Made by a program: the position numbers and the translations under genes
Assembly (NCBI RefSeq): GCF_020969955.1
Contig: NZ_JAHDSX010000002.1
Coordinates: 60,001 to 92,000 of the forward strand
Direction: 5' to 3'
DNA length: 32,000 nucleotides
Source: Allobaculum fili
GTDB lineage: Bacteria; Bacillota_I; Bacilli_A; Erysipelotrichales; Erysipelotrichaceae
Part shown: piece by piece, positions 614 to 26,756 of the stretch
Layout of the letters: the number at the start of each line of letters is the position of its first letter
How positions within the stretch are numbered: the stretch's first letter is position 1
The notes under the pieces: generated by a model
Database searches by the model: none
Told to the model about the DNA's origin: nothing
The model's input: the letters and a program-made list of their open reading frames with translations, nothing else

Positions 614-3235
614 ATGGCAATGCGAAAGCTGAAAAAATACAAACCTACAAAGTTCAAGGCTCGCACATCTTATTACGATAAGGAAGCAGCCGACTATGCG
701 GTTAACTTTATCCAGTGCCTGTGCCACACCAAAGGAACCTGGGCTGGTAAACCCTTTGAGCTGATCGACTGGCAGGAACAGATCGTGAGGGATCTGTTTG
801 GAATCAAAAAAAAGAACGGTTATCGTCAGTTCAATACAGCCTATATTGAGATAGGAAAAAAGATGGGCAAACAAGTTGCGTTAAATACATTAATTCCTAC
901 TCCAAAAGGCTTTACCACGATGGGGGAGATCAAGGTTGGCGATACCGTATTCGATGAAACCGGATCTCCGTGTCACGTAGTGGCCAAGAGTCAGGTCGAT
1001 TTTGACGAGCAGGCCTATCGTATTGTGTTCAAAGATGGAGAGGTCATCGAAGCTGGTGAGAACCATCAGTGGATTGGAGAGAAGCATCAAAAACCGATAA
1101 TGATGACAACCGGTGACTTGTACAGGTATTTCCAAACCAAATCCTACAATTTTCGGATTGCTGTCAATGGAGCGCTGGAAGCCCCTGAAGCGGAGCTGCC
1201 GATCGATCCATACCTGATGGGGTATTGGCTTGGTAACGGACATGCCACCAAGCCAGAAATTACTGTAAAGACTTCCGATGTTCCGGAAGTCCTTTTTAAT
1301 GTCCAGCAGAACACTGTAGTCAACAACGCCTGGTTGAATGTTGGCGACTCACTAATTTTCAAAATCAACGAGCTGAAGCCAGTCCTGCTCAAGTCATTCC
1401 ATGACAAAGTGATTCCGATTGAATATCTTCGTGCCTCTAAAGAACAACGGCTCCGCCTTTTGCAGGGATTGATGGACTCTGATGGATGTATCTCAGGAGT
1501 AAAAGGACAAGGAGTTTACTACTCCACAGAAAAGAGGTTAGCGGAAACAGTTAGTGAACTCCTGTGGACGCTGGGAATCAAAAATGCGATCACCTCAACT
1601 CCATCTACGCAACCGGCTAATAGGGATATGCCAAGCCAGGAATGTGGCAGAGTTGCTACCGGTGAAACCTGCTATATGATCAAATTCACCTGCTTTGACG
1701 ATGTGAAAGTTGCTGGTCTATCCAGAAAACTAAAGAATCGGATTCCCAGAAATCCAACGACCAGATCCCATTTTCGATATATCGACTCGATTGAGAAAAT
1801 CGAGAACCGAGGAATGCAATGCATCCAGGTGGATAGCCCGTCCCATCAATACTTGATTGGCAAAAGCTGTCTTCCAACGCACAACTCAGAGCTTGCAGCG
1901 GCCATTGCATTGCTCCTCACCTGCGGAGATGGAGAGCAGCGAGCTGAAGTGTACGGCTGCGCTTCGGATCGTCAGCAGGCATCCATTGTTTTTGATGTTG
2001 CTGCTGACATGGTCCGGATGTGTCCGGCTTTGAACAAGCGCTGCAAAATCCTCGCTTCTCAGAAACGGCTGGTGTATCTGCCCACGAATAGCTTCTATCA
2101 GGTTCTTTCCGCTGAAGCCTACTCGAAGCACGGCTTCAACATTCACGGAGTTATCTTCGATGAGCTACATTCCCAACCAAATCGAAAACTACACGACGTT
2201 ATGACCAAAGGTTCCGGGGATGCCAGGATGCAGCCCCTCTTCTTTCAGATCACCACTGCAGGAACAGATACCAACTCGATCTGCTATGAGGTCCACCAGA
2301 AAGCTAAGGACATTCTGGAAGGCAGAAAGGTCGATCCGACCTTCTATCCAGTCATCTATGGAGCTGATCCGGATGATGATTGGACCGATCCCAAGGTGTG
2401 GAAAAAAGTTAATCCCTCCTTGGGGATTACCGTTCCAATTGAAAAAGTCCAGGACGCTTGTGAATCCGCTAAGCAGAATCCTGCTGAAGAGAATGCGTTC
2501 CGGCAGCTAAGACTTTGCCAGTGGGTCAAACAATCCATCCGCTGGATGCCAATGGACAAATGGGACCTTTGCGCTTTCCCCGTTATCCCGGAAGAGCTCG
2601 AAGGCCGTGTTTGTTATGGAGGCTTGGACCTTTCCAGTACCACCGATATCACCGCCTTTGTTCTGGTCTTCCCTCCTATTGAGGAGGATGAACCATATCA
2701 GATCCTGCCGTACTTCTGGATTCCAGAAGACAGCCTGGATTTGCGTGTAAAGCGGGATCATGTTCCCTATGATATATGGAAGAAGCAGGGCTACCTGGAA
2801 ACTACCGAAGGAAATGTTATTCATTACGGATTCATCGAGAAGTTCATCGAGCGGCTTGGTGAAAAGTTCAACATCAAGGAGATTGCTTTTGACCGCTGGG
2901 GTGCTGTTCAGATGGTTCAGAACCTCGAAGGCATGGGCTTCACCGTCGTGCCCTTTGGCCAGGGCTTCAAGGATATGTCTCCGCCAACCAAGGAGCTGAT
3001 GAAGCTAGTGCTGGAAAAGAAGATAGCCCATGGCGGACATCCAGTTCTTCGCTGGATGATGGATAACATCTTTATTCGTACTGACCCTGCGGGTAATATT
3101 AAAGCAGATAAGGAGAAGTCCACAGAGAAGATCGACGGTGTGATTGCCACTGTCATGGGGTTGGACCGTGCTATTCGCTGTGGAAACATCAGCACCGAGA
3201 GTGTGTATGACAGTCGAGGTCTGCTGGTGTTTTAA
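614..3235 (+). CDS. terL: Terminase large subunit (Terminase_1-type), intein-containing precursor
   Basis: The ATPase Walker A YIEIGKKMGK is interrupted and resumes at SELAAAIALLL. Walker B is HGVIFDELH. C-terminal RNaseH-like nuclease motifs are present (GLDLSSTTDITAF, AFDRWGA, KIDGVIATVMGL). GGAGG RBS lies 7 nt upstream. The gene sits at the start of a portal-protease-capsid module. Confidence 0.95.
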   Translation: MAMRKLKKYKPTKFKARTSYYDKEAADYAVNFIQCLCHTKGTWAGKPFELIDWQEQIVRDLFGIKKKNGYRQFNTAYIEIGKKMGKQVALNTLIPTPKGFTTMGEIKVGDTVFDETGSPCHVVAKSQVDFDEQAYRIVFKDGEVIEAGENHQWIGEKHQKPIMMTTGDLYRYFQTKSYNFRIAVNGALEAPEAELPIDPYLMGYWLGNGHATKPEITVKTSDVPEVLFNVQQNTVVNNAWLNVGDSLIFKINELKPVLLKSFHDKVIPIEYLRASKEQRLRLLQGLMDSDGCISGVKGQGVYYSTEKRLAETVSELLWTLGIKNAITSTPSTQPANRDMPSQECGRVATGETCYMIKFTCFDDVKVAGLSRKLKNRIPRNPTTRSHFRYIDSIEKIENRGMQCIQVDSPSHQYLIGKSCLPTHNSELAAAIALLLTCGDGEQRAEVYGCASDRQQASIVFDVAADMVRMCPALNKRCKILASQKRLVYLPTNSFYQVLSAEAYSKHGFNIHGVIFDELHSQPNRKLHDVMTKGSGDARMQPLFFQITTAGTDTNSICYEVHQKAKDILEGRKVDPTFYPVIYGADPDDDWTDPKVWKKVNPSLGITVPIEKVQDACESAKQNPAEENAFRQLRLCQWVKQSIRWMPMDKWDLCAFPVIPEELEGRVCYGGLDLSSTTDITAFVLVFPPIEEDEPYQILPYFWIPEDSLDLRVKRDHVPYDIWKKQGYLETTEGNVIHYGFIEKFIERLGEKFNIKEIAFDRWGAVQMVQNLEGMGFTVVPFGQGFKDMSPPTKELMKLVLEKKIAHGGHPVLRWMMDNIFIRTDPAGNIKADKEKSTEKIDGVIATVMGLDRAIRCGNISTESVYDSRGLLVF
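872..1885 (+). mobile_element. Intein (338 aa, Gln87-Asn424 of TerL) with LAGLIDADG homing-endonuclease domain and class-3-type WCT signature
   Basis: Block A is QVALNTLIPTPKGF. Block B is GEVIEAGENHQW (His151, Trp153). LAGLIDADG motifs are PYLMGYWLGNGHA and LLQGLMDSDGCIS. Block F is MQCIQVDSPSHQYLIG (Cys403). Block G is LPTHN followed by +1 Ser425. Removing it rejoins GKKMGK|SELAAAIALL into an intact P-loop. Confidence 0.85.
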
Positions 3236-3245
3236 GGTAAATTCT

Positions 3246-3587
3246 ATGATCAACCTCGAAAATGGAAGATGGATTTGGATTTTCTACTATGCGTTCTTTT
3301 TGCTTATCTTTGTGTACGACCTCGCCAGGTGCTTCAGAGTCAGGAAGATGAAGCTGGTTCCGCTTTTGGGAGCGGTGCTCGCCATTATTGCTCCTGTCTG
3401 GTTCTTCTTTTTTGCGATCGGGAGAGGTCCTGCTGGTCCGAATGAGTTCATTTATTTATATCAACAATTAATTGTAGATGACAGTTCAGCCTGGGTTAGT
3501 CTTGCTTTATTCATTTTGACAATTCTCCTGTTTGTTTGGAGCATCTTCTTACCGTCCAAAGTAAGAAAGAACCAAAAGCGCCACTGA
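3246..3587 (+). CDS. Small integral membrane protein (about 3 TM helices), accessory gene
   Basis: Start taken at the internal ATG 3246 of ORF 3144-3587, just after the terL stop. Hydrophobic segments are WIWIFYYAFFLLIFVY, LVPLLGAVLAIIAPVWFFFFAIG and WVSLALFILTILLFVWSIFL. The RBS is weak. Confidence 0.6.
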   Translation: MINLENGRWIWIFYYAFFLLIFVYDLARCFRVRKMKLVPLLGAVLAIIAPVWFFFFAIGRGPAGPNEFIYLYQQLIVDDSSAWVSLALFILTILLFVWSIFLPSKVRKNQKRH

Positions 3588-4559: not shown

Positions 4560-4588
4560 AACACCTCATCACGAGGTGTTTTCTTTTT
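4560..4588 (+). terminator. Rho-independent terminator closing the terL-portal accessory cassette
   Basis: 8-bp stem AACACCTC (4560-4567) / GAGGTGTT (4573-4580), loop ATCAC, then TTCTTTTT. The portal RBS AAAGGAG follows immediately. Confidence 0.7.
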
Positions 4589-4602
4589 GGAAAGGAGAAA
4601 CC

Positions 4603-5838
4603 ATGAAACTCAAGAATCTGTTTCATCGAAAAGTCAGAGACCAGACCGCAGGAGCTGGTTACCGCTTCTTCCTGGGAACTTCCACTTCCGGAAAGCGAGT
4701 CAACGAACGCTCCTCCATGCAGATGACGGCAGTCTATTCGTGTGTGCGAATTCTCTCTGAAGCCATCGCTTCTTTGCCACTTCAAGTCTATGAGCAATCT
4801 GACAACAGCTCCCAGAAAGCCAGAGACCATCCTCTGTACTTTCTGCTGCACGATGAGCCTAATCCGGAGATGACCTCGTTCATCTTCCGGGAAACTTTGA
4901 TGACCCATCTGCTGCTTTGGGGAAACGCCTATGCGCAGATCATCCGAAATGGCAAAGGTGAAGTCGTGGCACTATATCCGCTGATGCCAGATCGCATGAA
5001 GGTCGACAGGGACGACAGCGGACAACTCTACTATGAATATCAGGTCTCGAAAGCCGATCCGGCAGTCAACAAATCCGGAATGGTCAGGCTGCATCCGCAT
5101 GATGTTCTTCATATCCCTGGTCTAGGCTTTGATGGCCTTGTCGGTTATTCACCGATTGCGATGGCCAAGAACGCCATCGGAATGGCGATAGCCTGTGAAG
5201 AATATGGAGCGAAATTCTTCGCTCATGGCGCCGCACCTTCCGGAGTCCTCGAACACCCTGGAACGTTGAAAGATCCATCCCGTGTTCGTGAAAGCTGGCA
5301 GGCTACCTTCGGTGGCTCATCAAACTCTGGTAAGGTAGCTGTGTTGGAAGAAGGTATGAAGTACACCCCAATCTCCGTACCACCCGAGCAAGCCCAGTTT
5401 CTGGAAACACGTAAGTTTCAGATCAACGAGATCGCCAGAATCTTCCGGGTGCCTCCTCACATGGTTGGAGATTTGGAGAAATCTTCCTTTTCCAACATCG
5501 AGCAGCAGTCCTTGGAGTTTGTGAAATACACGCTTGATCCCTGGGTTTCCCGTTGGGAACAGGCAATGACCAAGGTGCTCTTCAGTGAGGATGAAAAGCA
5601 GAACTTCTCCATCAAGTTCAATGTGGATGGCTTACTTCGTGGCGACTATCAGAGCCGTATGAATGGGTATGCCATTGCCAGACAAAACGGCTGGATGTCC
5701 GCCAACGACATCAGGCGTCTGGAAGAACTCGATCCGCTGCCTGCTGAGGCTGGTGGCGATCTGTATTTAGTGAACGGAAACATGCTCCCACTGGAAAAAG
5801 CTGGGGGCTTTTATTCTGGAAAGGAGAGAAGTGAATGA
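4603..5838 (+). CDS. Portal protein (HK97-family Phage_portal type)
   Basis: Start chosen at MKLKNLF (ATG 4603) after AAAGGAGAAACC. Length is about 411 aa. Typical portal blocks are present (AVYSCVRILSEAIASLPL, LLWGNAY, YTPISVPPEQAQFLETRKFQINEIARIFRVPPHM). It precedes the protease and capsid genes. Confidence 0.92.
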   Translation: MKLKNLFHRKVRDQTAGAGYRFFLGTSTSGKRVNERSSMQMTAVYSCVRILSEAIASLPLQVYEQSDNSSQKARDHPLYFLLHDEPNPEMTSFIFRETLMTHLLLWGNAYAQIIRNGKGEVVALYPLMPDRMKVDRDDSGQLYYEYQVSKADPAVNKSGMVRLHPHDVLHIPGLGFDGLVGYSPIAMAKNAIGMAIACEEYGAKFFAHGAAPSGVLEHPGTLKDPSRVRESWQATFGGSSNSGKVAVLEEGMKYTPISVPPEQAQFLETRKFQINEIARIFRVPPHMVGDLEKSSFSNIEQQSLEFVKYTLDPWVSRWEQAMTKVLFSEDEKQNFSIKFNVDGLLRGDYQSRMNGYAIARQNGWMSANDIRRLEELDPLPAEAGGDLYLVNGNMLPLEKAGGFYSGKERSE

Positions 5839-6572
5839 AATTCTGGAAATGGGTCCGAAATGAAGCCGATCCTGAACTGGAACCGGAAATCCAGGAAGCA
5901 AGAACCCTTTTTCTCAACGGGACCATCGCGGAAGAAACCTGGTTTGATGACGAGGTTTCTCCTAAGCAGTTCAAAGATGAGCTGATGGAAGACGATGGTG
6001 ACATTGCAATCTGGATCAATTCTCCCGGTGGAGATTGCTTTGCCGCAGCACAGATTTACAACATGTTGTCGGAATATCCTGGCAAGGTCACCATCAAGAT
6101 TGATGGCATTGCCGCATCCGCTGCTTCTGTGATTGCGATGGCTGGCGATGAAGTCCAGGTTTCTCCGGTGTCGATGCTGATGATTCACAACCCAGCCACC
6201 ATGGCCATGGGAGATGTGTATGAGATGAAAAAGGCTGCGGCAATGTTAGCCGAGGTCAAAGAATCCATCATCAACGCCTATGAGAGAAAAACCGGACTGG
6301 CAAGAACGAAGATTTCAAAGCTGATGGACGATGAAACGTGGATGGATGCCGGCAAAGCTATAGAGCTGGGGTTTGCCGACAGTCTCATGAATCGAAAAGA
6401 CGAACAGACAGATACTGGCATGGAGATTTCGAACTCCATGCTTTTTTCGTCGCGAAAAGTCATGAACAGCTTTGTCAACAAGCTCAAAAAGGAACGGAAG
6501 GATCAGGTCTCTTCTGCTTCGCTTCTCGAACGACTGGACCTGATGAAAACATGGAGGGATGACAATGAATAA
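5835..6572 (+). CDS. ClpP-family (S14) prohead maturation protease
   Basis: Motif run INSPGGDCFAAAQIYNML...IDGIAASAASVIAMAGD...MLMIHNP gives a Ser/His catalytic context. It overlaps the portal stop by 4 nt and lies upstream of the capsid gene. Confidence 0.9.
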   Translation: MKFWKWVRNEADPELEPEIQEARTLFLNGTIAEETWFDDEVSPKQFKDELMEDDGDIAIWINSPGGDCFAAAQIYNMLSEYPGKVTIKIDGIAASAASVIAMAGDEVQVSPVSMLMIHNPATMAMGDVYEMKKAAAMLAEVKESIINAYERKTGLARTKISKLMDDETWMDAGKAIELGFADSLMNRKDEQTDTGMEISNSMLFSSRKVMNSFVNKLKKERKDQVSSASLLERLDLMKTWRDDNE

Positions 6573-7740
6573 ACTGATGTCGCTGATTGAAAAGCGAAAC
6601 GCAGCCTGGAACGCTGCCAAATCCTTTGTGGAAACCAAGCAGGATTCTGATGGACTGCTTTCCAAAGAAGATGCCAAAACCTACGCTTCTCTGGAAGCCA
6701 AGGTCAAAGACTACAGCGCAGAGATTGAACGAGTGCAGGCGATGGAGGCTCTGGAAAATGAGCTCAACCGTCCCCTGAGTGCTCCGCTGACCACTAAGCC
6801 GGAAACCTACTCTGCCAAACCGATGAACATTCGTGAGAGCAAAGACTATAAAGACGCTCTGCTGTCCGCTTTCCGTTCCAACTTCAAGAACGTCTCCAAT
6901 ATTCTGCAGGAAGGGACTGCAGCCGATGGCGGATACCTGGTTCCGGTAGAGTATGACAACCGCCTGATTGATGTTCTGACTGAAGAGAACATCATGCGAA
7001 AACTGGCCACCACCATTACCACGGCAGGTGAGCACCGAATCAATGTGGCTGGTTCTAAGCCTGCCGCTTCCTGGATTGATGAAGGAGACGCACTGACCTT
7101 TGGAGATGCAAAATTCTCTCAGATCCTTCTGGATGCACACAAGCTGCATGTAGCAGTCAAAGTCACCGAAGAACTGCTCAACGACAATGCCTTCAACCTT
7201 GAGGGATACATCATTGACGCCTTTGGCAAAGCACTGGCCAATGCGGAAGAGGATGCCTTCCTGAACGGTTCCACCACCGGAAGACCTACCGGCATTTTTG
7301 CGGAAACCGGTGGCGGTACTGCCGCGCTCACCACAACTACTCTCAAAGCAGACGACGTGATCGACCTGGTCTATGCGCTGAAACGTCCGTATCGAAAGAA
7401 CGCCGCGTTCATTCTCAATGACAAGCTGATCGCCAAGATCCGTAAGCTGAAGTATGCCGATGGCAAAGAATACATCTGGCAGCCAACTTTTGTAGATGGC
7501 GAACCGGACCGGATCCTGGGCTATCCGGTCTACACTTCCGCCTTTGCTCCGGAAGACAAGATCGCCTTTGGTGACTTCTCCTACTACAACATCGGAGACC
7601 GTGGGAGCCGCTCTTTCTCTGAACTGCGTGAGCTGTTTGCGGGAAATGGCATGGTAGGTTTTGTAGCCAAAGAGCGTGTTGATGGAAAACTGGTACTGCC
7701 GGAAGCCGTTCAGATTCTGACTATCGGATCCGGTTCCTGA
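6565..7740 (+). CDS. Major capsid protein (HK97 fold, Phage_capsid family)
   Basis: N-terminal coiled delta-like region, then GGYLVPVEYDNRLIDVL..., ...FGKALANAEEDAFLNG... and LGYPVYTS. ATG 6565 is preferred over 6559 because the GGAGGG at 6553-6558 abuts 6559. Confidence 0.92.
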   Translation: MNKLMSLIEKRNAAWNAAKSFVETKQDSDGLLSKEDAKTYASLEAKVKDYSAEIERVQAMEALENELNRPLSAPLTTKPETYSAKPMNIRESKDYKDALLSAFRSNFKNVSNILQEGTAADGGYLVPVEYDNRLIDVLTEENIMRKLATTITTAGEHRINVAGSKPAASWIDEGDALTFGDAKFSQILLDAHKLHVAVKVTEELLNDNAFNLEGYIIDAFGKALANAEEDAFLNGSTTGRPTGIFAETGGGTAALTTTTLKADDVIDLVYALKRPYRKNAAFILNDKLIAKIRKLKYADGKEYIWQPTFVDGEPDRILGYPVYTSAFAPEDKIAFGDFSYYNIGDRGSRSFSELRELFAGNGMVGFVAKERVDGKLVLPEAVQILTIGSGS

Positions 7741-7756: not shown

Positions 7757-8029
7757 ATGATTACTCTTGAACAGGTCAAAGAATGGCTAAAAGTGGACCA
7801 GGACGATTTCGACGAGCTGACTGGGGAATTGCTTCAGTCAGCTTCTTCTATTTGTTCGGATGTACTCCGTCTGAAATCAGTCGACGATCTCGAACCGACA
7901 CCGCTCAACAAGATCGCCATTCTGTTTACGATGTCCTATCTGTTTGAACACCGCGAAGATGCAGATCTCAACCAGTTGAAAACCAACCTTCGCGCATTAC
8001 TTGAACCAGACCGAAAGGCGGTGTTCTGA
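7757..8029 (+). CDS. Head-tail connector / gp6-like DNA-packaging protein
   Basis: 90 aa. The N-terminus MITLEQVKEWLKVDQDDFDEL... is typical of gp6/gp15-like connectors. It lies directly after the capsid gene. Confidence 0.7.
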   Translation: MITLEQVKEWLKVDQDDFDELTGELLQSASSICSDVLRLKSVDDLEPTPLNKIAILFTMSYLFEHREDADLNQLKTNLRALLEPDRKAVF

Positions 8030-8385
8030 TGCGAATCGCTGATCTCAATCGAACCGTCACAATCCAGAAGCTGAATTCATCGGCCAATTTTTATGGGGAT
8101 GCTCCTGAAATCGAAACCTCCTTTTCTACCTGGGCGCATGTGATGGATAAGGGAATCAGTGAGACTGATGGAAATGGTCATGTTCACGAAGCTCGAGAAC
8201 TGCTGATCACACTCCGCTCTTACCGCAAAACAAGAGCTATCCGACCGGACATGTATCAGTTGTTCTATATGGAAGAACTCTATGACATCACCCATGTAGA
8301 GCTTGATTCTGACTCTGATCGTTTCGTCATACTTCATGCCAGGAGGAAAAGTCACAAAAGTGGAACTCCCGCGGCAATTCCTTAG
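8029..8385 (+). CDS. Head closure / head-tail adaptor protein (SPP1 gp16-like)
   Basis: 118 aa. Its start overlaps the previous stop (TGATG). The motif MRIADLNRTVTIQK is typical of head-tail adaptor proteins. Confidence 0.65.
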   Translation: MRIADLNRTVTIQKLNSSANFYGDAPEIETSFSTWAHVMDKGISETDGNGHVHEARELLITLRSYRKTRAIRPDMYQLFYMEELYDITHVELDSDSDRFVILHARRKSHKSGTPAAIP

Positions 8386-8455
8386 AGCTTGGGAAATATA
8401 CAGAACATGTTTTTCTGAGAGAGCATGTTTGTGTGTATTTGAAGCACTCACAGAA

Positions 8456-8699
8456 TCTCTGCTCTCCCCAAATAGTGGTGGAGTTATCAGACCATTGCGG
8501 ATAGTTCCACTCTATGAGGGATAGTCTCTGCTCTTACAGTGCTGAAAAAATGTCTGCTCTCCCCAAATAGTGGTGGAGTTTCCAGACTATCGCGGATAGT
8601 TCCACTCTATGAGGAATAGTCTCTGCTCTTACAGTGCTGAAAAAATCTCTGCTCTCCCCAATAGTGGTGGAGTTTCCAGACTATTGCGGATAGTTCCAC
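8456..8699. repeat. Non-coding direct tandem repeat, 95-bp unit, about 2.6 copies
   Basis: Units start at 8456, 8551 and 8646. Copies 1 and 2 differ at about 6 positions by manual alignment. Copy 3 has a 1-nt deletion and diverges after GGATAGTTCCAC. The unit carries internal sub-repeats (CTCTGCTCT twice, ATAGT three times). 95 is not a multiple of 3. Confidence 0.9.
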
Positions 8700-8758
8700 C
8701 ATAAGAGATATTTAGAATTTATACAGGTTTATTGAAATATTCGGAAGGAGAAAAGATC

Positions 8759-9076
8759 ATGCAAGCAACAGATCTGCAAGCCCTTCTTAAAGACTGTCCG
8801 TATCCCATCACCTGGCACCATTTCCAAAGCGAACAGCAGTTACCCTTCGCGGTGTGGAAAGAAGACGAATCGGAAAATATCACATCCGATCTTTCCATGT
8901 TTCGCCTGCGAGATACATTCACCATCGATTTCTACTACGAAAGCTGGAGCCAGAAAAAGGCATTTGAAGAATATCTCACCTCACTGCCTCTTCTCTGGCA
9001 AAGAAACACATCTGATCTTTGGATTTCTTTGGAGCAGATGTACCTGTCCAGCTATTCCATCGAGGTAACTGTATGA
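8759..9076 (+). CDS. Hypothetical head-tail joining / tail completion-type protein
   Basis: ATG 8759 lies after GGAAGGAG. 105 aa. The function is assigned from position only (between adaptor and gp10-like genes). Confidence 0.45.
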   Translation: MQATDLQALLKDCPYPITWHHFQSEQQLPFAVWKEDESENITSDLSMFRLRDTFTIDFYYESWSQKKAFEEYLTSLPLLWQRNTSDLWISLEQMYLSSYSIEVTV

Positions 9077-9468
9077 GTGCAACCATAGATACACTTCGTG
9101 ACTCCATCACTCTGGTGCTGGAAGACTGTGTTCGTCAGGCTAACAAAGCCAATGACGAAACCCTCGATCAGATCTCCAAAGAAGCACTGAATGTCGTTAA
9201 AGATAATGCTCCTGCCAGAGAAAACGGTGGGATCTACAAGAAGGGTTTGAAAAGAAAGAAAACCAAAGACGAAAGGGATGAACTCCAGTACACGCTCTAT
9301 GCCAGCGGAATGGAGTCATCCCTTTCTCATTTATTGGAAAATGGCCACTTAACCAGAAACGGAGAAACCATCGTTCCAGGAAAGCCCCATTTTGCCAAAG
9401 GACAGGAATATGCTGCCAAAGAAATCGAGGCAGCCTTCATCAAAAACTACAGAAAGGAGTCTGAGTAA
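9073..9468 (+). CDS. HK97 gp10-family tail/neck component
   Basis: ATGA overlap with the previous gene. Contains the motif ...SLSHLLENGHLTRNGETIVPGKPHFAKGQ..., typical of the gp10 family. Confidence 0.65.
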   Translation: MSATIDTLRDSITLVLEDCVRQANKANDETLDQISKEALNVVKDNAPARENGGIYKKGLKRKKTKDERDELQYTLYASGMESSLSHLLENGHLTRNGETIVPGKPHFAKGQEYAAKEIEAAFIKNYRKESE

Positions 9469-10369: not shown

Positions 10370-10605
10370 CCTATGACATTGAAACATTCTATGAACATAT
10401 GGTCATGGAATACACCGGACTGAATTTCCATGAAATCGATCAACTGCTCTATGAAGAGTTTCTGCTTTATCGCAGGGACGCATACATCTATCAGATGCAG
10501 CAAACCGAGGATGGCAGAAAGTATTTGAGAAATTGCCTCCTGTATGAAAAGACAGAGCCGGATCGAGATTCCCTCTGGAAGCTGAAGGAGAAAGGAGTGA
10601 GATAA
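10330..10605 (+). CDS. -1 frame extension (gpT-like part) of the tail assembly chaperone, giving a G-T fusion of about 190 aa
   Basis: The -1 frame reads LELPFYPVQGEGQPYDIETFYEHMVMEYTG... to TAA at 10603-10605, overlapping the tape-measure ATG (TAATG). The annotated ATG at 10399 has no SD. Confidence 0.65.
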   Translation, partial: LELPFYPVQGEGQPYDIETFYEHMVMEYTGLNFHEIDQLLYEEFLLYRRDAYIYQMQQTEDGRKYLRNCLLYEKTEPDRDSLWKLKEKGVR

Positions 10606-13376
10606 TGGCTGGCAACATCAAAGGGATCACCCTTGAGATCAATGGTTCGACCACCAAACTGGTGGATGCCCTTAAAGCGCCCATCAAGCAATCCAAAGAG
10701 CTGCAGAGCTCTTTGAAAAACGTGAATGCGGCTTTGAAGCTCGATCCCAAAAATGTGGATCTGCTCAACCAGAAGCAGCAGCTGTTGTCCAAATCGATCG
10801 GCTCAACAAAGGAAGAGCTGGCTCTTTTAAAGGAAGCACAAAAACAATATGTCGCATCCGGTAAAGATCTGACAGGAACGGAATACACCGAGCTGGAGCG
10901 AAAAATCGCAGTCACTCAGCGAACGCTTGAGAATCTGGAAAACCAGCAGAATAACTTTAATGGCCGTGTTCAGGCCATGGGAATGAAACTGTCAGAGTTT
11001 GGCGAAAAGACAGAGAAAGTCGGAACCGCCATGCTTCCAGTCACGGCTGGTGTATCCGCTTTAGCAGCTGGTTCTGTTGCAGCATTTAATGAGATTGATG
11101 AAGGCTATGACATCATCATCACCAAGACCGGTGCGACGGGTGAAGCCGCTGAGTCTTTGCAGAAAAGCATGGATACTGTATTTGGCTCCCTTCCCACCAC
11201 CGCTGCAGATGCCGGAACTGCGATTGGAGAGGTCAACACCCGCTTTGGCCTGACCGGAGACTCTTTGGAGCAGCTCTCCTCGCAATTCATCCAGTTTGCG
11301 CAGATCAACGAAACAGACCTCAACGGAGCTATTGGTTCCGTTAATAAGAACTTGCAGGTCTTCGGATTGGGTGCGGAAGACGCTCAGGGTTATCTTGGCC
11401 TTTTGACCACACAGGCCCAGGCAACCGGCATCTCCGTCGATGATCTGATGAATTCTGTGCAGAAAAATGGCCCCGTCTTCAAGGAGATGGGGCTTTCCAT
11501 AGATGAATCGGTGAATTTACTCGCGCAGTTCGAAAAGAATGGCGTCAATGCCGATTCTGCTTTAGCTGGATTGAAAAAAGCGCAGCAAAACGCCACAGCT
11601 GAGGGAAAAACACTCTCCCAGTCTTTGGGCGAGACCATGCAGGCGATCAAAGGAGCAAGCAGCGAGACCGAGGCACTTCAAATCGCAACGGAGCTTTTTG
11701 GAAAGAAAGGCGCTCTCGAAATGACCCAGGCTATCCGTGAAGGCCGGTTCAGTGTGGATGATCTTTCCAGCGGTCTGGACGATTTCAAAGGCACTGTCAC
11801 AGATACTTTTGAAGGAACCCAGGATGCGCCGGATAAGCTGACCACTGCTATGAACAACCTGAAAATCGCAGGTAAAGAGATCGGTGAAACTCTGCTTACT
11901 GCATTGGCCCCAATGTTTGAAAAGCTGGTCAACGCTGCCAAAAGACTGGCAGAATGGTTCTCCAACCTTTCGGACGGCCAGAAGCAGATGATTCTTGTTG
12001 CAGGCGGTGTTGCCGCTGCGATTGGTCCTGTTTTAATCGCAATCGGAAAGATGAGCGCTGGCCTGTCAGCTCTCATAAAGTATTTCGGTTCTGCCGAAAC
12101 CATGGGCGGAAAACTCATCGCAGCCATTGGTGGAATCAGCGCTCCGGTAGTTGCAGTGGCTGCAGCAGTAGCCGCATTAGTCGCAGCGTTTGTTCACCTT
12201 TGGAATACCAATGAAGAATTCAGAAACAATATTATGGAGATCTGGAACTCTATCGTTGAAGCATTCCAGAACTTCTTTCAGGGGATCGTTGATCGACTGA
12301 ATGCTTTAGGCTTTCAATTCGAGGACATCACGGAGGTTTTGAAAACCCTCTGGGACGGTTTCTGTTCGTTCTTAGCTCCTGTGTTTAAGGGAGCGTTTCA
12401 GTTCATTGCTACGACTTTGGAAACTGTCCTCAATGTTTTGACCGGACTATTCGACGTTTTCTCCGGACTCTTTACAGGAAACTGGGATCTGGTTTGGCAA
12501 GGTGTGAAAGAAATCTTCGAGGGTGTCTGGAATGGAATCAAGGACTGGTTCGATAACATCCTCAATACGATGAAGGATATTCTTGATGTCGTCTGCGGTT
12601 GGTTTGGGACTACCTGGGAAGAAACCTGGAATGGCATCAAATCCTTCTTTGAAGGCATCTGGGATGGAATCTCCGGTTTCTTTTCCGGAGCGGTTGAAGG
12701 CATCAAAACAGCCGCTTCCAATGCCTGGAATTGGATTAGCGAGAAAACACAGTCCGTTTGGAATGGCATCAAGGACCACATCATCAACCCCATTTCCGAC
12801 GCATGGAATAAGGTAAGTGAGGTCTTTGGAAACATCTACAACTGGATCAAAGATAAGATTGAAGGAGCCAGGGACATCGTTTCTGGTGCGATTGATGCCA
12901 TCAAGGGATTCTTCAATTTCGAGTTCCACTGGCCCCATATTCCGCTCCCGCATTTCAGTATTTCTGGTTCGATCAATCCACTTGACTGGTTTGATGGTGG
13001 TCTTCCTTCCATTGGTATTGAGTGGTACGCTAAAGCCATGCCAAGCGGCATGATCCTTGATGGACCCAGTGTATTTGGAATGAGAGGAAACACACTTCTG
13101 GCTGGTGGTGAAGCAGGAAAAGAAGTCATCGTTGGTGCGAACTCCCTTATGGGGATGATCCATTCTGCTGTACAAAGCAGCATGATGACCCGATCTTTTG
13201 AACAGCCACAAGTTATGGAGATTGACTATTCTAGAATCGGTCAGGAGATGAAAAACGCTGTTCTAGAATTGAGCCTGGAAGCCAATCTTTCCATGGACGG
13301 TAGAACTCTTGCTAAACAGTTGGTGAAGCCGATTGATCAGGAATTTGCCAGATTGACGAGAGAAAAATTCAGATAA
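10605..13376 (+). CDS. Tape measure protein
   Basis: 923 aa. It has an N-terminal coiled coil, central hydrophobic segments (MILVAGGVAAAIGPVLIAIG, ISAPVVAVAAAVAALVAAF) and Trp/Phe-rich periodic motifs (WNGIKD..). It lies after the G/T chaperones. Confidence 0.92.
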   Translation: MAGNIKGITLEINGSTTKLVDALKAPIKQSKELQSSLKNVNAALKLDPKNVDLLNQKQQLLSKSIGSTKEELALLKEAQKQYVASGKDLTGTEYTELERKIAVTQRTLENLENQQNNFNGRVQAMGMKLSEFGEKTEKVGTAMLPVTAGVSALAAGSVAAFNEIDEGYDIIITKTGATGEAAESLQKSMDTVFGSLPTTAADAGTAIGEVNTRFGLTGDSLEQLSSQFIQFAQINETDLNGAIGSVNKNLQVFGLGAEDAQGYLGLLTTQAQATGISVDDLMNSVQKNGPVFKEMGLSIDESVNLLAQFEKNGVNADSALAGLKKAQQNATAEGKTLSQSLGETMQAIKGASSETEALQIATELFGKKGALEMTQAIREGRFSVDDLSSGLDDFKGTVTDTFEGTQDAPDKLTTAMNNLKIAGKEIGETLLTALAPMFEKLVNAAKRLAEWFSNLSDGQKQMILVAGGVAAAIGPVLIAIGKMSAGLSALIKYFGSAETMGGKLIAAIGGISAPVVAVAAAVAALVAAFVHLWNTNEEFRNNIMEIWNSIVEAFQNFFQGIVDRLNALGFQFEDITEVLKTLWDGFCSFLAPVFKGAFQFIATTLETVLNVLTGLFDVFSGLFTGNWDLVWQGVKEIFEGVWNGIKDWFDNILNTMKDILDVVCGWFGTTWEETWNGIKSFFEGIWDGISGFFSGAVEGIKTAASNAWNWISEKTQSVWNGIKDHIINPISDAWNKVSEVFGNIYNWIKDKIEGARDIVSGAIDAIKGFFNFEFHWPHIPLPHFSISGSINPLDWFDGGLPSIGIEWYAKAMPSGMILDGPSVFGMRGNTLLAGGEAGKEVIVGANSLMGMIHSAVQSSMMTRSFEQPQVMEIDYSRIGQEMKNAVLELSLEANLSMDGRTLAKQLVKPIDQEFARLTREKFR

Positions 13377-19845: not shown

Positions 19846-19859
19846 AAGGAGATGTTTCT

Positions 19860-20063
19860 ATGAGCAGCAAAACGAAAACCTGGATCAAAGCAGCAGCCGT
19901 CCGCGCGATTAAAACTGTAGCGCAGACGGCTGTTGGCGTTATTGGAGCTTCCGCTCTGATTACCGAGGTCGACTTTCTTGTCGTCCTTTCTGCCTCCGCA
20001 CTGGCTGGTCTGGTCAGCCTTCTGACTTCTGTAGCCGGTCTTCCGGAGGTGGAGAATGCCTGA
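19860..20063 (+). CDS. Holin candidate
   Basis: 67 aa after AAAGGAG. The motif WIKAAAVRAIKTVAQTAVGVI plus a second hydrophobic helix resembles small Gram-positive phage holins. It lies directly upstream of the endolysin. Confidence 0.65.
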   Translation: MSSKTKTWIKAAAVRAIKTVAQTAVGVIGASALITEVDFLVVLSASALAGLVSLLTSVAGLPEVENA

Positions 20064-20415
20064 ACTGGAAACAAGCATTGTCTGGCTTGGAGCCATTGCA
20101 GGAGCGCTGTCTTCTATCGCGGCGCTCCTTTCTTTGGCTTTTAAGCCATTCCTGAAGCTCAAAGAGCGTGTGAGAGTCCTGGAAGATGAGATTCGAACTC
20201 TCAAAGATGAGCTGGCTGAGCACCAGGACAAGCTCAACAAAGACCATCACAGCTTTCTGCTGCAGCAGGATGTAAACCGGCTTCTGCTCGAGTCCACATC
20301 CAACCTGCTCAAGCACAACGTGGATGGCAACAATACCAAACAAATGATGGACTGCGCCAGACGAATCGATGATCTTGTTTTCGCCAGAGGCAGCAGCATT
20401 AAGGAGGAACTATGA
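20056..20415 (+). CDS. Lysis-module membrane-anchored coiled-coil protein (holin partner or regulator?)
   Basis: N-terminal TM segment IVWLGAIAGALSSIAALLSLAF followed by a coiled-coil region. It overlaps both the holin and endolysin genes. Confidence 0.5.
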   Translation: MPELETSIVWLGAIAGALSSIAALLSLAFKPFLKLKERVRVLEDEIRTLKDELAEHQDKLNKDHHSFLLQQDVNRLLLESTSNLLKHNVDGNNTKQMMDCARRIDDLVFARGSSIKEEL

Positions 20416-21368
20416 CCTATTCAACACTGATCAATGGATCGACACCGATCTACAATAAATGCAATCCGAGAACTTCCAAAATCACCAAAATTACTCCTCA
20501 CCACATGGCGGGAAATATGGGTGCAGCTGCTTGTGCCAAGTATCATCGAGACAGCGACCGGCAGGCTTCTGCCAACTACTACATTGGAACCGACGGAACC
20601 ATCTGGGGCGGTGTTCCGGAAGAGTTCAGAGCCTGGACGTCCAGCTCCTGGGACAATGACAACCATGCCATCACAATCGAGGTGGCCAATTCCTCGACTG
20701 GTGGAAACTGGCCAGTCTCCGATGCTGCATTCAATTCTCTGGTCAGACTGTGCAATGACATCTGCCAGCGGTATGGTATCGAGCTTTCCTGGACTGGAAC
20801 TGCATCTGGAACGCTCACCTGCCATGATATGTTTGCGGCTACCAACTGCCCAGGTCCATACCTGAAATCGAAATTCCCAGAGCTGGTACGTCTGGTGAAC
20901 AGCAGCACTGTGAGCAATGAGCCAATCAAAAAATCCGTTGATGTCATCGCAAAGGAAGTCATCAACGGAAAATGGGGCAATGGAGATGATCGGAAGAACC
21001 GGCTGACCGGCGCCGGATACGACTACAATGCCATTCAGGCAAAGGTCAACGAGCTGCTGGAGCAGAAAGCGAAACCTGCTGCTCCGGCAAAGAAGTCCAA
21101 TGATGTGATTGCCCAGGAAGTCATCAATGGCAAGTGGGGGAACGGAAACGATCGGATCAACCGTCTGGAAGCGGCTGGATATGATCCGACTGCTATTCAG
21201 GCTCTGGTCAACCAGAAACTGGGGGCTGGAAAGAAGAGCGTTGATATAGTTGCCCGAGAGGTTATTGCAGGTAAATGGGGGAATGGTCAGGACCGTGTTA
21301 ATCGACTGAAAAATGCTGGCTATGATCCAGCAAGCGTGCAGACGCGCGTAAACGAAATTCTGAAATAG
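20412..21368 (+). CDS. Endolysin: N-acetylmuramoyl-L-alanine amidase (Amidase_2/PGRP) with three Cpl-7 (CW_7) wall-binding repeats
   Basis: AAGGAGG RBS. Amidase_2 motifs are ITPHHMAG, NHAITIEVAN and CHDMFAATNCPG. Three repeats match VI(A)(K/Q/R)EVI.GKWGNG.DR.NRL..AGYD...(I/V)Q..VN. Confidence 0.93.
   Translation: MTYSTLINGSTPIYNKCNPRTSKITKITPHHMAGNMGAAACAKYHRDSDRQASANYYIGTDGTIWGGVPEEFRAWTSSSWDNDNHAITIEVANSSTGGNWPVSDAAFNSLVRLCNDICQRYGIELSWTGTASGTLTCHDMFAATNCPGPYLKSKFPELVRLVNSSTVSNEPIKKSVDVIAKEVINGKWGNGDDRKNRLTGAGYDYNAIQAKVNELLEQKAKPAAPAKKSNDVIAQEVINGKWGNGNDRINRLEAAGYDPTAIQALVNQKLGAGKKSVDIVAREVIAGKWGNGQDRVNRLKNAGYDPASVQTRVNEILK
20931..21359 (+). repeat. Three coding Cpl-7/CW_7 repeats within the endolysin
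   Basis: The repeats cover aa 174-216, 228-269 and 274-316 of the endolysin and share the KWGNG.DR.NRL..AGYD core. Confidence 0.8.
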
Positions 21369-21465: not shown

Positions 21466-21639
21466 TCATTTAGTTCGCTTCAAGATAAAACCATAGAGCA
21501 CGGCAACCAAAAGAAATATCAAAACGCAACTAAAGGCTTTAGAAGTATCGCCTTCTTTAATCGCCATAATCAACTCCATAGCGACTAAGGTGAGCACAAC
21601 GCTAAAACCGACTTGAATAATCCTAGTCCTTTTTACCAT
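21466..21639 (-). CDS. Tiny 2-TM membrane protein (57 aa from the SD-supported ATG; 63 aa from the first ATG)
   Basis: Hydrophobic segments are IIQVGFSVVLTLVAMELIMAI and FSCVLIFLLVAVLYGFIL. AGAGGA lies just upstream of the second ATG. It is co-oriented with and 27-45 nt downstream of the T5orf172 gene. Confidence 0.55.
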   Translation of the reverse strand: MVKRTRIIQVGFSVVLTLVAMELIMAIKEGDTSKAFSCVLIFLLVAVLYGFILKRTK

Positions 21640-21684
21640 TTTTCCTCTATCTCCCATGGAATAGAAATCTGTCTCATGTGACAG

Positions 21685-22356
21685 CTATCGGCTTCGATAG
21701 CTGTCTATTGGCTTTCCATTTGAATCCTTCCATACTCGCCAGCCATTTACGTTGTTTCCCAGTACGACAACGCCAGCAATCGAAACGGAAGAACATGGAA
21801 GATCTTTCTGAAGGACATTATCTATGATTAAAGCATTCTTCCTATATTTATATGCTGATTCATATTCAGAAGGTGCACAGATACTGCCCTTTTTAAGCAT
21901 CAGTTTTCCGTTCTTGATTTCGAGTTTCGCCTCGATCTTTCCAAAGCCCTTTCTATTCGAGCTTATCGTATAGATCCCGTTAGGGAGCAGACCGCTCTCC
22001 TCTTCTTCTTGTTTTTCTACCGCATTTTCAAAAGCATCTTCTTTCGTTCCTTCTTTAGGATAGATTTTCTTGCCATCGAACGCAGACAACAATTGGATCA
22101 CCATTTCCAAATCTGCTGCGAATAGCTCTGTCTGTCCGATTCGGCTCTTGCTGAAAATGTTATGGAGCAAAGCTTCTTTTTCTATATATCCGTCCACTTC
22201 GATTGCAAACTGACGGGTTAAAGCTGTCACATTTGAATAGCCGTTCTTTTCGAGGTTATACATTCTCTCCTCAAACCTTGAGCTTCCGGTCCTGCCAATT
22301 TTGATCAAACCCGGAACAGCCGTAGACATTACATACAAAATCCCTCTCGCCATCAT
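21685..22356 (-). CDS. GIY-YIG-superfamily T5orf172 (MUG113-like) domain protein fused to a DUF4357-type C-terminal domain
   Basis: The N-terminus GILYVMSTAVPGLIKIGRTGSSRFEERMYNL...EKEALLHNIFSKSRIGQTELF matches the T5orf172 consensus. The C-terminus ...KLMLKKGSICAPS...CSSVSIAGVVVLGNNVNGWRVWKDSNGKPIDSYR matches the DUF4357 pattern. A GAGG SD lies 6 nt before the ATG. Confidence 0.85.
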   Translation of the reverse strand: MMARGILYVMSTAVPGLIKIGRTGSSRFEERMYNLEKNGYSNVTALTRQFAIEVDGYIEKEALLHNIFSKSRIGQTELFAADLEMVIQLLSAFDGKKIYPKEGTKEDAFENAVEKQEEEESGLLPNGIYTISSNRKGFGKIEAKLEIKNGKLMLKKGSICAPSEYESAYKYRKNALIIDNVLQKDLPCSSVSIAGVVVLGNNVNGWRVWKDSNGKPIDSYRSR

Positions 22357-26269: not shown

Positions 26270-26278
26270 GAGAACAAC

Positions 26279-26686: not shown

Positions 26687-26756
26687 TCCTAACGTCGAAT
26701 TTACTGGATAATACGGCCTTTCAGAGTGATATATGGACCAACGAAAGGAGATCCAC

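Follow-up and report, generated by a model that had tools for sequence, protein, structure and literature searches.

Comparison with related loci shows a rare insertion, bearing a 95-nt tandem repeat, in the structural operon of a few Allobaculum prophages

The intergenic gap that follows the head-closure gene Hc1 in an Allobaculum prophage is, as comparison with related loci shows, a rare insertion into a formerly overlapping gene pair, confined to a few closely related Allobaculum prophages. The gap holds the sole substantial tandem-repeat array of the window (the whole 32-kb stretch of DNA analysed here), and we give about even chances to the reading that this array is a VNTR within a ~405-nt non-coding insertion at the former overlap of Hc1 and the next neck gene, carried as a tolerated passenger. 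The phage that hosts the array is a temperate HK97-type siphovirus of Allobaculum, present as a prophage.

Results

A long gap in a compact gene module

Between the Hc1 stop at 8385 and the next ATG at 8759 we measured 373 nt, the length that the first-pass annotation had given for the gap behind the head-closure gene. This ORF-free gap is the longest intergenic space of the packaging-to-lysis module, in which the other spacings range from -14 to +300 nt and are mostly ≤65 nt. The features of the locus are collected in Table 1. For the gene on the far side of the gap, Pfam, PHROG and PADLOC searches returned no match; the AlphaFold model of its 105-aa protein (pLDDT 72) has weak fold matches to phage connector or terminator proteins, and the product is probably a neck or tail-completion component. 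A function as a toxin was considered for this gene and rejected, given the absence of PADLOC and Pfam matches, the connector- or terminator-like fold matches and the presence of the gene without the array in relatives. The replication genes of the window are located at 22.7-26.3 kb, and in one relative (L023) terS lies ~4.6 kb upstream of TerL. The TerL intein of the same phage group is another presence/absence insertion polymorphism. No tRNA or tmRNA genes were found.

Table 1. Coordinates of the features at the Hc1/105-aa gene junction (positions in the window)
Feature	Position	Strand	Basis or remark
Hc1 head-closure gene, 118 aa	8029..8385	+	phrog_25, PF05521
Left copy of purine-rich RBS motif, AGGAGGAAAAGTCA	8341..8354	+	Homology to insert-free relatives stops at ~8349-8354
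Lineage-specific non-coding insertion, net +405 nt against 18 related loci	8351..8758	+	Alignments, motif-to-ATG distance
GGAACTCCCGCGGCAATTCC, an imperfect palindrome of 20 nt at the insert's left end, in the new Hc1 tail	8362..8381	.	Inverted-repeat scan
Imperfect hairpin of ~25 bp with many G.U pairs and a 4-nt loop	8387..8445	+	Starts 2 nt past the Hc1 stop
Repeat unit 1, 95 nt	8447..8541	+	TRF, direct-repeat scan, nhmmer E 3.8e-32
Repeat unit 2, 95 nt, 91-94% identity to unit 1	8542..8636	+	TRF, repeat scan, nhmmer
Repeat unit 3, 1-nt deletion, conserved to ~8699-8709, 3' third degenerate	8637..8726	+	TRF, nhmmer model positions 1-74
AU-rich leader with SD GGAAGGAG at 8743-8750, 8 nt before the ATG	8700..8758	+	Right, imperfect copy of the RBS motif
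105-aa gene, narrow Allobaculum-phage family	8759..9076	+	Homologues at 74-96% identity only

The gap seen against related loci

Hc1 and the 105-aa gene share an overlap of 32 nt in 18 related loci, among them four Allobaculum mucilyticum prophages and a single near-isogenic empty site. The distance from the RBS motif to the ATG is accordingly short in relatives (19 nt), against 424 nt in the window and 235 nt in another carrier of the insert, L005. Blastn alignments with insert-free relatives break off at 8349-8351, and the empty site of L027, which reads CAGGAGGAAA-TCTC-ATGCAAGC, retains 99-100% identity within ~200 nt on either side while lacking the insert. The first-pass annotation had treated the gap as a fixed feature of the head-tail joining genes, a view that the comparison does not sustain, since relatives show it to be a rare insertion between genes that otherwise overlap. 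Because the array sits in an optional insert and the flanking genes overlap in relatives, it does not belong to the conserved head-tail machinery, and the status of a rare, lineage-specific insertion makes an essential or conserved role less likely.

The insert is composite, comprising a new Hc1 tail, a leader hairpin, the tandem array and an SD leader. It encodes the last ~10-11 codons of Hc1 (about 8351-8385), which end in the tail KSGTPAAIP before the stop; comparison with relatives gives ASNRSASPS before the stop as the ancestral C-terminal tail, which is kept in all Hc1 cluster representatives, and the ancestral Hc1 frame, now disconnected, is still readable as GRRKDHASNRSASPS followed by a stop at 8743-8790. 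The 105-aa gene is preceded here by the insert's own SD. Since the insert brings a hairpin past the stop, ~2.8 units and an open SD leader, both flanking genes are intact and the downstream gene is independently translatable. Both ends of the insert carry a direct repeat of ~14 nt (AGGAGGAAAAGTCA on the left, AAGGAGAAAAGATCA on the right), which is imperfect and amounts to a generic SD-like purine run, so that it may simply be the RBS of the donor and not a target duplication. A duplication in L012 and a MAFFT alignment prompted the idea that the insert had decayed from a copy of either neighbouring gene end (3' of Hc1 or 5' of the 105-aa gene). This origin was rejected: apart from the ~14-nt RBS motif, Smith-Waterman comparisons against 300 shuffles gave p ~0.08 or higher.

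Architecture of the tandem array

TRF placed the array at 8454-8699 with a period of 95, 2.6 copies, 94% matches and a score of 443, in agreement with the initial description of a 95-bp tandem repeat in 2.6 copies. In the nhmmer register, which starts at 8447, the units occupy 8447-8541, 8542-8636 and 8637-8709, with an envelope to 8726, corresponding to ~2.8 copies and a degenerate 3' end. The period had been described as exactly 95 bp; this holds for the first start-to-start spacing in the repeat-finding scan, whereas the second is 94 nt because copy 3 carries a 1-nt deletion. Divergence between units is ~6%, and the variants are distributed among the copies in a mosaic pattern.

The motif content reported earlier was borne out in part. 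One A6 tract is present per unit, at each unit boundary, as had been stated, whereas ATAGT, said to occur three times in every unit, was counted 3, 3 and 2 times in successive units, and the motif said to occur twice per unit, CTCTGCTCT, has four exact copies (at 8457, 8526, 8621 and 8647), the fifth being GTCTGCTCT; the shorter TCTGCTCT occurs five times. At the RNA level, unit 1 has three GGAUAG motifs and unit 2 has two. A pair of 15-nt palindromes, (A/T)CTAT-N5-ATAGT, with centres 20 nt apart, and a pair of direct TCTCTGCTCT motifs are present in both unit 1 and unit 2, and unit 3 has one of each; a palindrome half-site of unit 1 is substituted (ACCAT in place of ACTAT). All four occurrences of the core CTAT-N5-ATAG in the 32 kb fall inside the array.

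Carriers and copy-number variation

The insert is carried by five samples. L005 has one hybrid unit in a 184-nt gap, compared with ~3 units in the window, and another relative, L012, shows a tandem duplication of 140 nt that arose independently at this Hc1/105-aa junction, making a recombination or expansion hotspot the sole role among those proposed at the outset that has direct support. The short-read contigs L002, L004, L006 and L029 all end inside the array, the complete chromosome CP078088.1 has an array identical to that of the window, and both array edges are confirmed by independent samples. The flanking genes of the carriers are 6-20% diverged, the insert is intact in five samples and the array, with units ~6% diverged, has not collapsed. 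Persistence across diverged flanks and the uncollapsed array are compatible with maintenance by selection, an argument subject to ascertainment bias because the carriers were located through an identical neighbouring protein. For that same reason we did not accept a homing-like spread, which a ~1-kb block of 100% identity in mosaic backgrounds might have suggested.

Folding of the insert

On the + strand the leader hairpin folds at -24.1 kcal/mol (z -4.75), compared with -9.9 kcal/mol on the - strand. The sole SNP among carriers in this hairpin, A/G at 8404, converts an A-U pair with U8428 into G.U, and pairing is kept. As it is not followed by a U-run, the hairpin is not an intrinsic terminator. 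Folding of the palindrome at the left end of the insert was not significant, and the sole minus-strand terminator-like match (8373 to 8353) is weak. The region 8695-8762, by comparison with shuffles, is open: its z of +1.82 makes it less structured than 193 of 200 shuffled sequences.

The units themselves fold with z between -1.0 and -1.9, and the minimum-energy structure differs from copy to copy. The long stem described for copy 1 was confirmed by folding; copies 2 and 3 lose two of its pairs and adopt other minimum-energy structures. An alignment fold yielded 0 compensatory pairs among only four near-identical copies. The caution of the first-pass annotation that an RNA structure of the unit is not established is supported, and weak z-scores, copy-dependent folds and the 0 compensatory pairs led us to disfavour a conserved structure. 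The core unit hairpin (GGUGGAGUU/AGUUCCAC) and the leader hairpin both rely on G.U pairs and are thus sense-strand specific, which hints at constraint at the RNA level. The minus strand of each unit contains a GC-rich 7-bp hairpin and a U6 run, 8 nt apart.

Coding potential, signals and further copies

The longest stop-free stretch in the gap, in any frame, is ≤64 aa, and the ATG/GTG ORFs in the array span 23-31 aa, none with a homologue, consistent with the initial assignment of the repeat as non-coding. A hidden or decayed ORF was rejected after a concatenated six-frame translation retrieved nothing from 5.8 billion proteins. No sigma-70-type promoter, intrinsic terminator or ORF was found in the insert; promoter- and terminator-like sites are no more numerous than in shuffles, and the single promoter-like match overlaps the start codon. 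Without ORF, promoter and terminator, the insert is expected to form part of the late-operon transcript. Rfam 15 (riboswitches, ribozymes, group I/II introns, sRNAs) gave no gathering-level match in the 32-kb window, and in the interval 7800-9300 at E ≤ 10 the matches were at chance level only (E 2.2 and 5.6). A CRISPR array is excluded, as repetition extends over the full 95-nt unit and leaves no unique spacers. The number of 11-nt inverted repeats in the insert is at chance level, and those bracketing the units were rejected as terminal inverted repeats, given our own estimate that chance alone would produce ~10 such pairs in 400 nt. The array is thus without a link to Rfam, PHROG, Pfam or PADLOC, in accord with the remark made at first reading that no standard function or element was known for it.

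Neither the 32-kb window nor ~129 kb of related phage DNA yielded a second copy of the unit, and blastn in distant mode against deposited phages gave no similar DNA. Unit and hairpin patterns, exact or degenerate, returned 0 matches, whether in IMG/VR (five patterns), GTDB genomes (one pattern) or JGI metagenomes (one pattern); the absence of the unit from IMG/VR and the JGI metagenomes is uninformative because these collections lack the whole phage family. By pattern search the unit is also absent from GTDB representative genomes, including that of A. mucilyticum 128 with its four related prophages, a result that bears in part on the earlier concern that it might be a common host element of the REP/MITE type.

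Discussion

Under the reading to which we give even chances, the insertion would have landed exactly where Hc1 overlapped the next neck gene and was coupled to it in translation. Replication slippage or unequal recombination may have generated the units and may still alter their number; the units would need no sequence-specific function, and the insert as a whole would be a tolerated passenger, be it foreign DNA, filler DNA or a selfish insertion. The one effect likely to follow from it would be that of an intercistronic spacer that uncouples the translation of the two genes; the leader hairpin may additionally stabilise the mRNA at a 3' end or offer a site for RNase III-type processing.

A BOX/MITE-like element, a pseudo-ToxI-like decoy and a protein-binding array are possible but unsupported readings. 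We consider it unlikely that the insert is a copy of a non-autonomous composite interspersed element of BOX-like or MITE-like type, with a hairpin left module, a variable tandem middle and a right module, mobilised in trans and present in other copies in Allobaculum genomes or phages. The modular order of hairpin, n x 95-nt units and terminal module would fit such an element, as would the variable number of the middle units (~2.8 against one in L005), the precise presence/absence with an imperfect target repeat at both ends, and the unit divergence, which is compatible with a pre-formed array acquired elsewhere. Pneumococcal BOX elements, which consist of boxA, a variable number of boxB and boxC, are transcribed and have predicted stem-loops, and the altered 3' end of the gene has counterparts in BOX, RUP and SPRITE insertions (PMC3049150). 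Yet no second copy emerged from any of the collections searched, from the window to the metagenomes, the translated search against the protein collection was likewise empty, the flanking direct repeats are not followed inwards by terminal inverted repeats, and the presumed target duplication is imperfect, generic and possibly a donor RBS. It is quite improbable, in our judgement, that the array is an expandable sense-strand ncRNA derived from the late transcript that acts as a decoy, either as a pseudo-ToxI-like antitoxin mimic or as a sponge sequestering an RNA-binding or defence protein of the host, its copy number being selected by host defences. ToxN-type endoribonucleases cleave A-rich motifs, and type III antitoxin repeats (ToxI, CptI, TenpI) are about 34-45 nt long. 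The A6 tract at each unit boundary, the sense-strand-specific hairpins, the recurrence of GGAUAG in units 1 and 2 and the persistence of the insert across diverged phage backgrounds are in line with a decoy, as is the format of a tandem, non-coding, phage-borne array with mosaic copies and a copy number that varies among carriers; pseudo-ToxI of phage PhiTE grew through strand slippage from 1.5 repeats to 4.5-5.5 and also has mosaic repeats (PMC3475682). The unit, however, is ~2.6 times as long as the 36-nt ToxI unit (PMC3475682), has no Rfam match and shows neither a fold shared among copies nor covariation, and the array lacks a promoter or terminator of its own. No ToxN-, AbiQ- or defence-like gene is adjacent, the 105-aa gene having no PADLOC match and existing without the array in all relatives; no cognate host array is present in GTDB representative genomes, and most related phages in the same hosts are without the insert. 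The type III antitoxin-like role that had been proposed for the repeat is hence disfavoured. We also doubt, to much the same degree of improbability, that the insert is a self-contained, horizontally exchanged ncRNA cassette, in which the late-operon transcript would be cleaved at the leader hairpin and the A-rich boundaries to release ~95-nt RNAs that titrate a host defence nuclease or RNA-binding protein, while slippage would adjust the copy number; were it so, RNA mimicry of the pseudo-ToxI type would gain a new analogue with a longer unit, in a phage of gut Erysipelotrichaceae.

It strikes us as very unlikely that the units are bound, as phased DNA sites, by some protein of the phage or host, in the manner of an operator, iteron, centromere or packaging accessory. 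Iteron-type arrays have short repeats of about 17-22 bp beside a replication initiator or small-terminase gene. The paired palindromes and TCTCTGCTCT motifs of units 1 and 2 (one each in unit 3), the restriction of CTAT-N5-ATAG to the array and a 95-bp period that would be close to nine helical turns favour binding sites, but the motif copies are not independent, because tandem duplication made them, and one palindrome half-site of unit 1 is altered. Moreover, the sites are absent from the rest of the window and from related phage DNA, including ~10 kb of the replication/regulation region of a relative, the array has no gene for a replication initiator, partition or the small terminase beside it, and relatives do entirely without the array; the iteron or packaging function put forward for it earlier is not supported. 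Finally, it is extremely improbable that the repeat is an assembly artefact or that its units are minus-strand terminators directed against antisense transcription. Short-read assemblers do fail at the array, as an artefact might lead one to expect, but the copies differ at several specific positions, the complete chromosome and the window agree, independent samples confirm both edges, and the assemblies of four other samples either end inside the array or hold one unit, so the suspicion of an artefact raised at first reading can be set aside. As for terminators, a role likewise suggested there, the GC-rich hairpin and U6 run on the minus strand of each unit are the elements one would look for, but 8 nt separate them, no unit contains a terminator flagged by the scan, and the scan counts equal those of shuffles.

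With the VNTR-bearing, passenger-like insertion as the preferred reading, the locus carries a practical lesson: when an odd gap is encountered in a phage structural operon, close relatives should be compared first, for here an apparently intrinsic feature turned into a rare insertion polymorphism. It also offers a natural experiment, namely near-isogenic phages with 0, 1 and ~3 units at a site where neck genes normally overlap and are coupled, which could be used to study the effect of uncoupling, an added hairpin and a long untranslated spacer on the stoichiometry of head-tail genes. The array breaks short-read prophage assemblies and may be a useful strain marker (VNTR) for Allobaculum phages. 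If either a decoy RNA or a mobile repeat family were true, RNA counter-defence or BOX-like elements would reach gut Erysipelotrichaceae phages, although nothing found requires either reading.

Several known systems share traits with the insert. Like the BOX elements of S. pneumoniae and S. suis, it is short, non-coding and modular, with a variable-number tandem middle module (PMC3049150). BOX elements are transcribed with their neighbours, have predicted stem-loops and can change adjacent gene ends and downstream expression, to which the insert may be likened; the S. suis boxA and boxC modules, as the pneumococcal ones, are ~50 nt, compared with a unit of 95 nt here (PMC3049150). BOX elements, however, are multi-copy dispersed families, whereas the insert has one known locus, shares no sequence similarity with them, has no terminal inverted repeats and resides in a phage of Erysipelotrichaceae. 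With the Correia elements of Neisseria and the ERIC elements of enterobacteria, transcribed repeats that give rise to RNase III or RNase E processing sites within operons, it has in common a long imperfect hairpin inside an operon transcript, a putative determinant of processing or stability (PMC3049150); these are MITE-like and multi-copy, with terminal inverted repeats and defined target duplications, unlike the insert, for whose hairpin processing is a candidate role only. Like the pseudo-ToxI locus of the Pectobacterium phage PhiTE, the array is a phage-borne, intergenic, non-coding tandem repeat with mosaic repeats, whose copy number would change by slippage or recombination (PMC3475682). 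PhiTE pseudo-ToxI is expressed during infection (PMC3475682), and the array may be comparable in this respect; the PhiTE unit has 36 nt, a defined pseudoknot and a resemblance to a known host antitoxin, whereas the 95-nt unit folds differently from copy to copy and lacks a known host counterpart or toxin.

The insert also resembles the moron and VNTR indels of mosaic temperate phages in its presence or absence among near-identical phages, its insertion exactly at a gene boundary, the preservation of the genes and the variable copy number. A classical moron comprises a gene together with a dedicated promoter and terminator. The insert differs from this in being devoid of ORF, promoter and terminator, and it split an overlapping, coupled gene pair and brought along a replacement SD.

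A single tandem array in the head-tail joining region

The window contains a temperate siphovirus module of the HK97 type, in which the 373 nt between Hc1 and the 105-aa gene form the longest intergenic space, most others measuring -14 to +65 nt. The 95-bp array that the first-pass annotation had placed in this gap was borne out by Tandem Repeats Finder (period 95, 2.6 copies, 94% matches, score 443), a profile search and the gene coordinates, and is the only substantial tandem array that Tandem Repeats Finder reports in the whole window. In a repeat search the unit spacing drops from 95 to 94 nt, the result of a 1-nt deletion in copy 3, and the profile search, in register from 8447, gives ~2.8 copies with a degenerate array end. 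The motif content had been described essentially correctly. Each full unit has TCTCTGCTCT twice (spacing 69/26 nt) and two (A/T)CTAT-N5-ATAGT palindromes at a distance of 20 nt; unit 1 has three copies of GGATAG and unit 2 has two, and one A6 tract lies at each unit boundary. Since these motifs are mutual copies, their recurrences are not independent evidence. The repeat is non-coding, as proposed earlier; no frame in the gap stays open beyond 64 codons, the small ORFs lack homologues, and the 95-nt period shifts the frame with each unit.

An assembly artefact is contradicted by the identical gap in the complete 2.73-Mb chromosome CP078088.1, which overall shares 99.95% identity with the window, by copies that differ at defined positions and by the reproduction of both array edges in independent short-read assemblies. 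Elsewhere, the tape-measure gene is a single 923-aa ORF in the window and two ORFs (372 and 583 aa) in CP078088.1 (locus L003, 4846-6318), and a chaperone-region ORF has 99 against 113 aa. The two sequences are 99.94-99.95% identical with a few indels, and these ORF differences probably stem from homopolymers or indels that differ from one assembly version to the other.

Features of the phage module and of the insert (window positions)
Feature	Position	Strand	Remark
TerL	614-3235	+	873 aa
Long space	3236-3535		300 nt, after TerL
Portal	4576-5838		
ClpP-like protease	5835-6572		
Major capsid protein	6559-7740		
Head-tail adaptor Ad1	7757-8029		
Head closure Hc1	8029-8385	+	
Insert part a	insert left end		~35 nt completing Hc1 with a new tail; contains a 20-nt palindrome
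Insert part b	8387-8445	+	imperfect hairpin, 59 nt, starting 2 nt after the Hc1 stop codon
Insert part c	after hairpin		~2.8 tandem units
Array (Tandem Repeats Finder)	8454-8699		
Units (profile search)	8447-8541, 8542-8636, 8637-8709		envelope to 8726
Insert part d	before 105-aa gene		AU-rich leader, ~60 nt, with GGAAGGAG 8 nt ahead of the ATG
Old Hc1 frame	8743-8790	+	GRRKDHASNRSASPS, then stop
105-aa ORF	8759-9076	+	
HK97 gp10-like gene	9073-9468		
Tail genes	between HK97 gp10-like gene and endolysin		
Tape-measure gene	10605-13376		
Long space	19846-20055		210 nt, before holin/endolysin region
Endolysin	20412-21368		
Small ORF	21466-21657	-	beside DUF4357 gene
DUF4357 protein	21685-22356	-	223 aa, shortly after endolysin
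Region past lysis module	22722-29503	+	
Large serine recombinases	26733-27953, 27929-29503	+	side by side
Type I restriction R subunit	29632-31986	-	next after recombinases

Two further long spaces occur in the late region, and the gene content between TerL and portal varies among relatives (88/110/126-aa versus 165/151-aa ORFs). The window TerL carries a LAGLIDADG_3 homing-endonuclease domain (aa 278-333) between ATPase segments; the 873-aa form also occurs in the related contigs L023 and L026, and a 535-aa form without the domain in L024 and L025. The pattern resembles that of an intein carried by some members of the phage group and missing from others, a further insertion polymorphism beside the one at Hc1. 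On the strand opposite the endolysin, the DUF4357 protein has a match (E 5e-96) to PDC-S57, a candidate defence family in PADLOC; its gene is probably a moron-like defence gene carried by the prophage. Past the lysis module lie a DUF2800 PD-(D/E)XK nuclease, an Enc34-type ssDNA-binding protein, a family A DNA polymerase, a small HTH protein and the two recombinases; this stretch, with the restriction gene that follows, could mark the end of the prophage or belong to a second element.

The gap is an insertion

We compared the contigs encoding proteins of the 105-aa family, which is very narrow (11 clusters, 74-96% identity), together with four related prophages of Allobaculum mucilyticum strain 128 (NZ_CP078089.1). 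Hc1 and the 105-aa gene overlap by 32 nt in 18 loci, at a junction reading ...CATGCCAGGAGGAAA(N4)ATGCAAGC..., and all 18 place the downstream ATG 19 nt from this motif, against 424 nt in the window and CP078088.1 and 235 nt in contig L005 only. Homology with relatives ends at ~8349-8354 and restarts at ~8745. Contig L027, 99-100% identical to the window over ~200 nt per side, keeps the compact junction (CAGGAGGAAA-TCTC-ATGCAAGC) and represents an empty site in a near-isogenic background. The ancestral tail ...HASNRSASPS is found in every Hc1 cluster representative, the window protein has an insert-encoded tail ...HKSGTPAAIP, and the old overlapping frame is still open 3' of the insert, cut off from Hc1. 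Purine-rich ribosome-binding motifs on both sides of the insert (AGGAGGAAAAGTCA and AAGGAGAAAAGATCA) could be a decayed target duplication, or one could have been brought by the inserted DNA. The four strain 128 prophages (L019-L022) lie on one chromosome, and three share identical sequence around the junction.

The insert is composite. Its hairpin folds with -24.1 kcal/mol on the + strand (z = -4.75) and with only -9.9 kcal/mol on the - strand, owing to its many G.U pairs; the sole SNP among carriers (A/G at 8404) changes an A-U pair with U8428 to G.U. An intrinsic terminator is ruled out at this hairpin, since no U-run follows the stem. Of 200 shuffles, 193 are more structured than the leader (z +1.8), whose SD is open. 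A scan of the insert found no sigma-70-like promoter except one weak match overlapping the start codon, and a terminator scan found none in the units, contradicting the earlier suggestion of minus-strand terminators. With coding, promoter and terminator signals absent, the insert is therefore organised as a sense-strand intercistronic region, presumably co-transcribed with the late operon; both flanking genes are intact and the downstream gene has an independent ribosome-binding site.

A core hairpin GGUGGAGUU/AGUUCCAC (G.U pairs included) can form in all copies and is longer in copy 1. Minimum-energy folds vary from copy to copy, and unit z-scores are modest, between -1.0 and -1.9. Folding the alignment of the four available copies revealed no compensatory change, and Rfam gave no match.

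Carriers and further copies

The insert was found in five samples: the isolate chromosome, SRR34912171 (L002/L004), SRR31320882 (L005), SRR24718837 (L006) and SRR21707382 (L029). Copy number differs among the carriers. Four short-read contigs stop within the array, as expected where a repeat exceeds the k-mer. L005 crosses a single hybrid unit, whose 5' part resembles units 1 and 2 and whose 3' part resembles unit 3, as an in-register deletion would give; assembler collapse would be a less likely source. The carriers are mosaic: near the insert, over a minimal shared block of ~8230-9210, they are ~100% identical to the window, and farther out they diverge by 6-20%. We do not read this block as homing, because carriers were found through the identical neighbouring protein.

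At the same junction, contig L012 (GCA_029782595.1 JARCCX010031871.1, about 300-505) has 140 nt of the Hc1 3' end independently duplicated in tandem, giving a 136-aa Hc1; sister contig L013 of the same assembly lacks the duplication. The junction seems duplication-prone, or L012 is a metagenome assembly chimera. The Hc1 homologue P0018 (137 aa, NCBI), with its C-terminal third swapped for unrelated sequence, is another rearrangement in the family or a chimera.

No similar sequence was found in deposited phage genomes, and no further copy by blastn or nhmmer in the rest of the window and ~129 kb of related phage DNA. IMG/VR gave zero matches to five exact or degenerate patterns and JGI metagenomes zero to one, the phage family itself being absent from both; GTDB representative genomes also gave zero to one pattern. 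On the question of a common host repeat, only the negative in the representative genomes, A. mucilyticum 128 among them, is informative. Searching translations of the insert against 5.8 billion predicted proteins returned nothing, and an origin as a decayed duplicate of adjacent coding sequences was rejected.

Interpretation

The first-pass observation stands and its interpretation is partly supported: the feature is real yet an optional, rare insertion. With about even confidence, we favour a tolerated, lineage-specific non-coding insertion bearing a 95-nt VNTR, made and resized through slippage or unequal recombination, which would be transcribed within the late operon, its units having no specific function. 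Any effect would be that of an intercistronic spacer, uncoupling Hc1 translationally from the next neck gene, which would initiate independently from the insert's SD; the leader hairpin possibly stabilises or processes the mRNA.

A composite mobile repeat of BOX/MITE type would account for the modular architecture and variable middle module, but is unlikely, given that the searches gave neither a second copy nor terminal inverted repeats. A pseudo-ToxI-like decoy RNA has precedent in known phage arrays that are prone to expand and have mosaic repeats; unit length, the inconsistent folds and the absence of both toxin and host counterpart make that reading quite doubtful, and an exchangeable decoy-RNA cassette is similarly improbable. 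Palindromes and direct motifs would suit a phased array of protein-binding sites, yet these are mutual copies, a partner gene is lacking and no such sites occur elsewhere, and we regard such an array as slightly less probable still. Sequence comparison and the terminator scan contradict an artefact or minus-strand terminators, leaving these highly improbable.

The locus does not match type III antitoxins, Rfam families, iterons, terminators or CRISPR arrays. It differs from MITE/BOX elements in its ends, without terminal inverted repeats, and the searches above gave no second copy. Its closest likeness is to BOX-type composite repeats, together with the VNTR/indel polymorphisms of mosaic temperate phages: the sequence is new, but non-coding insertions that bear repeats and sit at the boundary between genes are already known.
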